From Candidatus Eiseniibacteriota bacterium (GTDB taxonomy: Bacteria > Eisenbacteria > RBG-16-71-46 > JABDJR01), in assembly GCA_963783375.1 (NCBI GenBank), contig CAWANH010000028.1, positions 1,024,001 to 1,088,000 on the forward strand: DNA of 64,000 bases, written 5' to 3'. Of the stretch, positions 47,760 through 50,141 are shown in pieces. The notes under the pieces were generated by a model. It was not told the origin of the DNA, ran no database searches, and saw only the letters and a program-made list of their open reading frames with translations. The first letter of the stretch is position 1; each line of letters starts with the position of its first letter. The position numbers were made by a program, and so were the translations under genes.

Positions 47760-48386
47760 TCACCGCAGGCTGAACACGAACGGGATCAGCACCCGGGTCC
47801 TGACCGGCCGATGGCGCTGGAGGCCCGGGGTGAAGAGCCATTGTCTCGCCGCGTCCAGCGCCGCCCGCTCCAGGGCGGGGATGGTGTCGGAGCTCTTGAT
47901 CCGCGCGGCCAGGACCCGGCCGGTCGTGCCGACCACCACCTCGACGGTGACCGTTCCCTCGGCCCGGGCCTCGCGGGCGATGTCCGGGTAGCCCGGCTGG
48001 ACCCGCTTCAGGATGGCCGGCTCCCGGTCCAGGGCCTCGAACACCTGATTGTCGCCCGGGGGGGGCGCGGCCACCGGGTTGGAGAAGATGTCCGGGTTGA
48101 AGATGGGGATGGTGTCGCGGGGGTCGGCGCTATCGGTGACGTCGATCTCGGAGGGGAGGAGGGGACGCTTCACATCCTCCGGTGGCTCCTGGATCTTGAT
48201 CGGGTCGGGGACCTCAATCAGCTTGAACGGCTCGTTCTCCGGAAGCCGGTAGGGGGTGATCCGCATCGCCGGCACGGCCAGGAAGAGAGCCACGTGCAGG
48301 ACGACGCCGACGGCGAGGGTGGTCTCGAGGGTCCGGGGGTAGCGGGACTTGAAGGCGAACTGGGCGGTCAGGGCGCGATCGGTCAT
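47760..48386 (-). CDS. tonB: Energy transducer TonB
   Basis: N-terminal TM with His, Pro-rich linker, PGYPDIAR..EGTV.V, AALDAARQW.FTPG; GGAGGA RBS. Confidence 0.88.
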   Translation of the reverse strand: MTDRALTAQFAFKSRYPRTLETTLAVGVVLHVALFLAVPAMRITPYRLPENEPFKLIEVPDPIKIQEPPEDVKRPLLPSEIDVTDSADPRDTIPIFNPDIFSNPVAAPPPGDNQVFEALDREPAILKRVQPGYPDIAREARAEGTVTVEVVVGTTGRVLAARIKSSDTIPALERAALDAARQWLFTPGLQRHRPVRTRVLIPFVFSLR

Positions 48387-48449
48387 GGCAACGGTCCTCC
48401 CCACTGGGTGGTCGGTCGCTCACAACCCCGGCGCCGCAGAATGAGCCTC

Positions 48450-48482
48450 AAAAATTTGGGGCACCCGGCTTTCGGGTGCCCC
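48450..48482 (-). terminator. Intrinsic terminator on the minus strand
   Basis: GGGGCACCCG-AAAGC-CGGGTGCCCC-AAATTTTT. Confidence 0.75.
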
Positions 48483-48892
48483 TACGGCGACACAAGAGCG
48501 GGCTTGTATACTCTTGCGACGCGCGATCCCCCCCTCAGGGATCAGGATGGTTCCCTGCGTCCGCATGTTCGTCCGAGAACGAACCAGACCTTGATGGGAG
48601 GCATCCCCAGGCCGAGCGGGCGCTTGCTTTGCAATACCCTACGGACGCTTCGTGGTCGCAGGGAACCAGTCGTTGTGGCCGTTGAACCCGCCCCGGGGCG
48701 GGGCCTCGACCTGAATTCCGGTTGCCGTGATGCCGATCCACCCCCGCCTCGGGTTGAGGGCCGCGTGGGTGGCTCGCCGGTGGCTGCCTCTTCACCGAAC
48801 GAGCCACCCTGCCGGGGTTGGAGAGTAGCATTCGCGGCTTTTTGGTGCTTCGAAGCTGCATCCCTCTTCCGAGAGAGTCTCGCTGCTTCGAT
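48450..48892 (-). ncRNA. Candidate large multi-domain structured ncRNA (~440 nt)
   Basis: Many nested stems, a GGAA tetraloop, G-U pairs favouring the minus strand, sigma54 motif upstream, terminator downstream, no ORF with genome-like codon bias. Confidence 0.62.
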
Positions 48893-48902
48893 CACCTGTA
48901 TA

Positions 48903-48919
48903 CGCAATCCGTGTGCCAG
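48903..48919 (-). promoter_or_regulatory. Sigma54 promoter
   Basis: CTGGCAC-ACGGA-TTGCG, near-consensus -24/-12; AT-rich tract 48945-48970 and palindrome ATGGGT-N7-ACCCAT (49028-49046) upstream. Confidence 0.72.
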
Positions 48920-49204
48920 ACGATCGCACCGGCGGTGATCGTCTTCCATGTTATTGGAGTATAATAGCTTAGACCCTGAGGGGCCGGGCCGGTCCCGGTG
49001 GACCGGACGGCGAGGCGGCGACGGCCGATGGGTACCAAAAACCCATGCTCGAAAGTCGATGTCCGGTAACCCGCCATTCCGCAAGCAATTCCCGGTGGAT
49101 ACCTCCTACCCGGAGAATCGACCCGAAGAACCGGTCCTTTCCAGATTGGAAAGCCGTTGGTCTTGGCCACGTTAACCGCAGTAGGATCAACCCGAGGTTC
49201 TTTG

Positions 49205-49979: not shown

Positions 49980-50020
49980 TGTTTCAAATTGACACGCACA
50001 TACTGTTTCACACTGAAACA
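49980..50020. promoter_or_regulatory. Tandem palindromic activator sites (probable bEBP UAS)
   Basis: TGTTTCA-AAT-TGACACG (49980-49996) and perfect TGTTTCA-CAC-TGAAACA (50004-50020). Confidence 0.6.
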
Positions 50021-50124: not shown

Positions 50125-50141
50125 TTGGCACGTTGCCTGCT
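50125..50141 (+). promoter_or_regulatory. Sigma54 promoter of the hsp20-dnaK operon
   Basis: TTGGCACG-TTGC-CTGCT, GG-N10-GC; AT-rich IHF-like tract just upstream. Confidence 0.65.

Follow-up and report, generated by a model that had tools for sequence, protein, structure and literature searches.

The closest described precedents for the RNA reported here come from Vibrio and Staphylococcus. The LuxO-Qrr system of Vibrio provides an example of feedback between a sigma54-dependent RNA and its activator (PMC2632942), and in Staphylococcus C-rich loops of RNAs expressed independently of Hfq are proposed to bind ribosome-binding sites (PMC2790875). The locus analysed here lies in a stretch of 64,000 nucleotides (the window, to which all unprefixed coordinates refer) of a Candidatus Eiseniibacteriota genome, designated G000, and is almost certainly a gene for a non-coding RNA belonging to a new family. 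It specifies a folded RNA that stands alone, equipped with a sigma54 promoter, an enhancer and a terminator and independent of the neighbouring tonB gene. In the literature searched, which was mostly open-access, no description of this family was found; motif tables in the supplements of RNA-discovery studies could hold it. As an uncatalogued RNA family with a nameable promoter, enhancer, candidate activator and candidate target, its function can be tested with few synthetic parts in a laboratory strain.

That transcription of the gene depends on sigma54 is hardly in doubt, and rpoN is present in the source genome. A sequence-only reading of the window had named a sigma54 box, two palindromes, an AT-rich tract and a terminator, and all of these elements are present: the box at 48919-48904, the palindromes at 49153-49137 and 49046-49028, the tract at about 48975-48940 and the terminator hairpin, with a U run, at 48482-48458. 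Both palindromes had been taken for activator-binding sites. Comparison of homologues agreed with this for the one at 49046-49028, which overlaps a conserved enhancer site (49045-49029), but not for the one at 49153-49137; the second conserved site is found at 49112-49096 instead. All 23 extracted homologues start at a sigma54 box; a terminator closes 22 of them, and the remaining one is cut by a contig end. An enhancer half-site lies upstream in 22/23 homologues (shuffle mean 1.7), and the full element is a palindrome that mostly occurs in two copies near -194 and -127. A match to the IHF consensus is found at about -52 in 4/23 homologues and is absent from the window itself. The features of the locus are collected in Table 1.

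Table 1. Features of the RNA locus and its surroundings in the window.
Feature	Position	Strand	Remarks
Distal enhancer site, palindrome TGGRTA-N5-TAYCCA	49096..49112	minus	about -194 from the -24 box; motif and position conserved
Proximal enhancer site	49029..49045	minus	about -127; motif conserved
AT-rich tract in the enhancer-promoter interval	~48940..48975	minus	from sequence; possible DNA-bending site
Sigma54 -24/-12 promoter	48904..48919	minus	at the 5' edge of homology in 23/23 extracted homologues
RNA gene, ~443 nt	48450..48892	minus	start predicted from the -12 box; homologues, folding
5' domain, P1 (48889-85/48856-52) and inner hairpin P2	48852..48889	minus	P1 without covariation
Helix P3 (48838-33/48765-60), encloses core hairpin and P5	48760..48838	minus	5/6 pairs change on both sides
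Core hairpin, 4-bp stem, C-rich loop 48826-48814 ending CCAACCCC	48810..48830	minus	proposed pairing seed
Long hairpin P5, conserved loop with AGGCA (48789-85)	48767..48809	minus	11/14 pairs change on both sides
Internal G-rich segment, can pair with core loop (possible mask)	48737..48745	minus	in many, not all, close homologues
3' multibranch domain closed by P6 (48668-59/48557-48)	48548..48668	minus	P6: 4/10 pairs with double change
Invariant hairpin P9 carrying seven consecutive G	48526..48542	minus	second candidate partner of the core loop
Hairpin P10, conserved loop end AAGCCC	48487..48522	minus	homologue alignment
Intrinsic terminator	48450..48482	minus	in 22/22 complete homologues; 3/9 pairs with double change
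10-nt complement of core loop and 3' stem in tonB leader	48423..48432	minus	candidate secondary target
tonB-family gene, variable neighbour, outside the RNA	47760..48386	minus	PF03544, E 6e-20; synteny

The RNA is conserved and its helices covary. Between 48895 and 48450 the fold z-score was -4.98 for the minus strand and -4.00 for the plus strand (100 shuffles each). In an alignment of 22 rows (A2, from which two duplicate loci and one locus truncated by a contig end were left out), double changes affect 26 of 83 pairs, compared with 9.5 in shuffles (0/500) and 6-11 in a control with slid partners; since the structure was drawn from the window sequence and the control ignores relatedness, these counts are to be read as support and not as a P value. 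Double changes are located in P3, P5, P6 and the terminator. Some details of the sequence-only fold did not hold across the family. The proposed first stem is kept in 18/22 aligned homologues and is missing from a second family (f2, see below), the two 10-bp stems named in that reading covary while the inner helices of the multibranch domain sit in a variable region, and the self-complementary GUAUAC occurs in 5/22 homologues only. The element that had been overlooked is the invariant core loop (48826-48814) with its enclosing helix (48838-33/48765-60). This loop is closed by a stem of 3-6 bp in 46/46 family members, with stem letters that vary together, and its end, the motif on the 3' side of the loop, is invariant in 45/46. 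Predicted folds leave the core loop mostly unpaired in 18 of the 24 members folded; in the RNA of the window itself it is predicted to be mostly paired internally (0.16 unpaired). A loop of the 3' domain, AUGCCU at 48604-48599, complements the P5 loop and forms a candidate kissing pair, which is invariant in 22/22 rows and hence gives no covariation. Likewise, no variation occurs in the CCCC/G7 pair or in hairpin P9, so that all three stay candidates. The large 3' domain would stabilise, gate or dock the RNA.

No protein-coding role is apparent for the overlapping reading frames. As the sequence-only reading had noted, they lack the GC3 bias of the genome (0.59-0.67, compared with 0.93 for tonB and 0.90 for a methyltransferase gene). 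The one named there, ORF 48535-48861, is not conserved: its ATG is found in 2/22 homologues and a length that is a multiple of three in 8/22. The suggested novelty is also borne out, as no Rfam 15 covariance model reached its gathering threshold between 46000 and 52000 (best E 4.4). The element is single-copy in G000 and distinct from the housekeeping RNAs: the genome's own tmRNA was located on contig C3 (ARAGORN), and RNase P- and SRP-like loci, assigned by signature motifs, lie on contig C29. A 6S RNA (RF00013) was not matched anywhere in G000, and the branched fold of 440 nt differs from the rod-like 6S fold of ~190 nt. The CsrB/RsmZ type does not fit the alignment, in which the invariant blocks are not GGA loops. 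Genes for Hfq, LSM, CsrA, Ro60 or a reverse transcriptase (RVT_1) were not found in G000, which is 97% complete, and a KhpB/Jag gene is present. Although no Hfq, CsrA or Rfam-detectable 6S RNA was found, the genome has a selenocysteine tRNA and some 25 sigma54 activators. CrcZ of Pseudomonas sequesters Hfq-Crc through A-rich motifs. The window RNA resembles CrcZ in its size range and sigma54 promoter and differs in that no Hfq was found and that the conserved motif is C-rich; the earlier suggestion of a CrcZ-type sponge is thus weakened by the missing Hfq, LSM and CsrA genes.

A DNA search of 61 genomes included nine others from the order: eight gave long matches, and the ninth is 75% complete. 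A pattern scan of metagenomes yielded 18 loci, of which 16 are homologous to the RNA (E 2e-58 at most), and a scan of a genome collection yielded 67 loci with 8 true members, six of which are Candidatus Eisenbacteria entries; the other 59 matches were chance or repeats. Several loci (among them L078, L080, L086, L104 and L107) carry a dispersed palindromic repeat of Burkholderiales with CCTGAGGGGGGAC, which is unrelated to the RNA. Viral contigs gave 6, 0 and 0 loci with three patterns, and the six are non-homologues. A pattern for the G7 block with one mismatch revealed no further homologue in 206 genomes. Two covariance models built from close members recovered, out of 151 genomes searched, just the 9 belonging to the order; weak partial matches appeared in 1 and 11 genomes (E 0.001-0.05), and divergent members were missed.

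These divergent members were revealed by a search for enhancer plus promoter, which detected non-coding transcripts in other families of the phylum. The family of the window is termed f1, and f2, f6, f8, f12, f14 and f15 are the other RNA-bearing families. A pattern consisting of the sigma54 box, 35-110 bases and CCAACCCCRGC matched 32/206 Candidatus Eisenbacteria genomes, once each and with no control match: f1 7/8 including G000, f2 2/2, f15 9/13, f8 1/1, f14 6/6, f6 2/2 and f12 5/5. Eleven other families among the same genomes contain no match. The remaining RNA sequence falls into three scaffolds of ~230-450 nt (ends estimated), whose homology is read from promoter, loop and topology, with weak profile matches confined to f12 (E 0.009 and 0.026). 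The f12 members have the GAUGCCUCCC block and the GGGCA loop in common with the type of the window and retain the kissing pair as G-U. In five other families the 3' domain is swapped for unrelated, shorter folds while the core loop stays. An enhancer score of at least 12 was reached in only 9/23 divergent members. None of 11 divergent-member loci matched Rfam, and a set of 17 loci including other candidates gave one tRNA only. Outside the phylum, a looser promoter-plus-loop pattern matched 4/125 genomes, about the control level and, judging from the matches listed, apparently in coding DNA. Covariance models from close members miss most of a family that a promoter-guided search recovers. Two further kinds of sigma54-driven non-coding transcript were observed: a conserved transcript of ~430 nt that ends in a terminator and matches no Rfam family (L228 and L229, in G142 and G143), and short transcripts with a 5' run of six to seven G (L201, L232, L233 and L239) in families without the CCAACCCC RNA.

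The enhancer offers a route to the regulator. When 130 sigma54-like sites of G000 were scored for it, the RNA promoter ranked first (38.7, with a matrix that includes its own sites) and the second site (27.7) precedes an operon on contig C29 (G000:C29:1318967-1322476, L164). This operon encodes a 119-aa exported protein with an ADPD/GDPD core, a putative pro-peptide, followed by a 1013-aa protein with TPR, sigma54-AAA+ and HTH parts (G000:C29:1318967-1322008, minus strand); a GAF part is our own reading of the sequence and is absent among the 25 Pfam matches listed. Orthologues of the activator are present in 10/10 genomes of the order (41-96% identity). The enhancer (score 15.7-24.8) is located upstream of the operon in all ten, mostly ~197 bases before the sigma54 box, as well as in f12, f6, f8 and one f7 genome. 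It is absent before 10 activator paralogues whose recognition helix differs (best score 9.6) and before 8 activators of f14 and f15 with the same helix type. One paralogous pro-peptide/activator pair of G000, at C28:1470817, likewise lacks the enhancer and differs in its recognition helix. A third enhancer promoter (G000:C28:1011140-1011860, L165) drives an exported protein of no Pfam family, and the transcripts of this locus and of the RNA gene begin with similar bases. Because the enhancer recurs with equal spacing before the activator's own operon, an autoregulatory layout, we infer that the activator binds it; G000 has ~24 other sigma54 activators, and control of the RNA by the named TPR activator is judged probable.

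The same operon contains the candidate target. In 7/8 f1 genomes GGGUUGG, a complement of the core loop, is located between the Shine-Dalgarno sequence and the ATG of the activator gene (8-10 bp duplex), and the eighth genome, G005, has a bulged 10-bp variant. All five f12 genomes carry GGGGUUGG in the pro-peptide leader, at a distance of 33-34 nt from the ATG where measured (four genomes), and the f8 operon region has two sites. This is the sole RNA-mRNA block that recurs across genomes. The background amounts to 13/3176 start regions in G000 (0.4%; own gene calls). Across the same genomes the hsp20 and dnaK spacers are variable, and in nine genomes lacking the RNA no complement lies near a start. 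Despite an identical loop, no operon-start site was found in f2 (2 genomes), f6 (2), f14 (3) or f15 (3 examined), and loop and target showed no compensatory changes. By energy, the activator duplex ranks 21st of 3176 start regions.

We propose that the distant TPR-domain activator likely switches the RNA on through the palindrome enhancer, the small exported protein being the putative precursor of a signal sensed by the TPR domain. The C-rich loop would pair, without Hfq, with the ribosome-binding site of the activator mRNA and block its translation, which would provide negative feedback within a predicted peptide-signalling circuit. We give an even chance to the reading of a Qrr/RNAIII-like base-pairing RNA that represses its own activator, with feedback pairing as its main role. 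More tentative is the wider proposal of a new class, in which one invariant loop presented on three interchangeable ornate scaffolds and gated by internal pseudoknots would serve as an Hfq/CsrA-free effector of a peptide-sensing sigma54 circuit in a two-membrane phylum, feeding back on a distant TPR activator.

Best placed among the alternatives, though clearly less probable than the feedback reading, is an ornate structural RNA, that is a protein scaffold, a sponge or an RNA-only assembly, in which the loop pairs internally, with the G7 loop or the segment after P3, or binds a protein and the mRNA matches are secondary. Many invariant blocks lie far from the loop, including the kissing pair and the CCCC/G7 pair, and many f1 members contain an internal complement of the loop. 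The loop is invariant even where no mRNA site was found, a KhpB/Jag gene is present, and ROOL, GOLLD and OLE set a precedent with assembly through kissing loops (PMC12286853). One locus (L070:1702-2114) is the sole member with an altered loop, CCUACCC, and has a partner run of six G. It thus lacks one C and one G in the two paired runs, which may be real covariation or a homopolymer error, as a third run is also shorter. Against a structural role, five families keep the loop but have a different 3' domain, no conserved internal partner (no internal UU) exists for the loop's invariant AA, Hfq, LSM, CsrA and Ro60 were not found in G000, and the recurring operon sites are left without explanation.

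It is unlikely that other conserved mRNAs are the main targets of the base-pairing RNA, with the activator operon and tonB as lineage-specific recruits. The loop is invariant in seven families while operon sites are known from three, and the tonB leader has a site in 5/8 loci. The complement, on the other side, is not enriched near starts, either across G000 (13 observed, 12.5 expected) or in the 32 RNA-bearing genomes (210 matches, 202 in the control). The 7-nt complement GGGUUGG is also absent from rRNA, tRNA, tmRNA, RNase P, SRP and four rpoN leaders; in the same check of housekeeping RNAs GGGGUUG was found in 16S rRNA and tRNA-Trp only.

A cis-acting leader or attenuator of tonB, the second role considered in the sequence-only reading, is very improbable. 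A tonB-like gene follows the RNA in 8 loci, in the window 64 nt past the terminator, and in five of them the leader can pair with the core loop. Elsewhere the downstream gene encodes a CDP-alcohol transferase or another product, or it lies on the opposite strand (gene names other than PF03544-type assignments are our reading of translations). The attenuator is unsupported because the downstream gene differs or points away in most homologues and because the constant terminator has no conserved alternative fold. The tonB-leader duplex ranks 6th of 3176 start regions, and the five loci with a similar site are all close kin; tonB may be a secondary target in one subgroup. A downstream antisense copy was discarded as a family-wide feature, as 10 nt are present in 3/23 loci only. 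The constant neighbour in the window's family is instead a divergent hsp20-dnaK operon with its own sigma54 box at 50126-50140. The palindrome TGTTTCA-N3-TGAAACA upstream of it (49980-50020) marks a heat-shock promoter of sigma54 type that has an activator site to itself, and co-regulation with the RNA was rejected since this palindrome differs.

Public sequencing runs provide a weak hint of a discrete transcript. In eight runs, contigs at least 90% alike are confined to 48450-48875, and none of the near-identical ones enters tonB; four RNA runs contain pieces of 155-214 nt with 98-100% identity. Seven contigs of five runs end at 48870-48875, which is 17-22 nt past the predicted start. The runs were picked for containing the stretch, their word shares are all below 0.2, and the contigs give neither strand nor level. 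As two runs that are probably DNA also stop inside the element, the missing cover of tonB is no proof of a discrete transcript. Contig 1 of run X10 passes the terminator beyond 48450 and contains two complements of the core hairpin of 10-11 nt in swapped order; this extension is either the downstream target site of a relative or a library chimera.

Despite a pseudoknot-rich fold, an exposed invariant loop and an overlapping 108-codon ORF, a ribozyme, a template RNA for reverse transcriptase or a small-protein messenger is very improbable, given no RVT_1 in G000, no Rfam ribozyme match and the rarely retained ATG.

The preferred reading, a base-pairing RNA in a feedback loop, can be set beside described systems. 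Like Qrr1-4 under LuxO, it is a sigma54 RNA under an enhancer-binding activator, with proposed pairing to the activator mRNA and negative feedback (PMC2632942). Unlike here, where no Hfq was found and the candidate activator is a 1013-aa TPR-GAF-AAA+-HTH protein, Qrr RNAs use Hfq and LuxO is switched by a phosphorelay (PMC2632942). The window-type RNA also differs from Qrr in being single-copy, 230-450 nt long and multi-domain, and matches it in no sequence. With RNAIII and RsaE it has in common a large or multi-hairpin, Hfq-independent build and a C-rich loop proposed to bind ribosome-binding sites, unpaired there although not in the window's own fold, and the proposed place in a peptide circuit, RNAIII being the effector of peptide quorum sensing (PMC2790875, PMC2837412). 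It differs from them in phylum, promoter type and activator and in having no conserved ORF, and its loop, CCAACCCC rather than UCCC, would read the spacer behind the Shine-Dalgarno sequence (PMC2790875, PMC2837412). A small exported pro-peptide gene beside a TPR receptor recalls the RRNPP systems, with peptide binding putative here; those are described for Firmicutes (PMC10075063), whereas here the lineage has two membranes and the TPR part is joined to a sigma54 activator. The extensive conserved structure and candidate kissing loops are reminiscent of OLE, ROOL and GOLLD (PMC12286853), to which there is no Rfam match and from which the dedicated enhancer and candidate mRNA target set it apart. 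If the proposed feedback is true, the logic known from Qrr in Vibrio and RNAIII in Staphylococcus arose again from different parts. In its presumed working, the window RNA would be most like Qrr/LuxO and RNAIII/RsaE, while being a member of neither.
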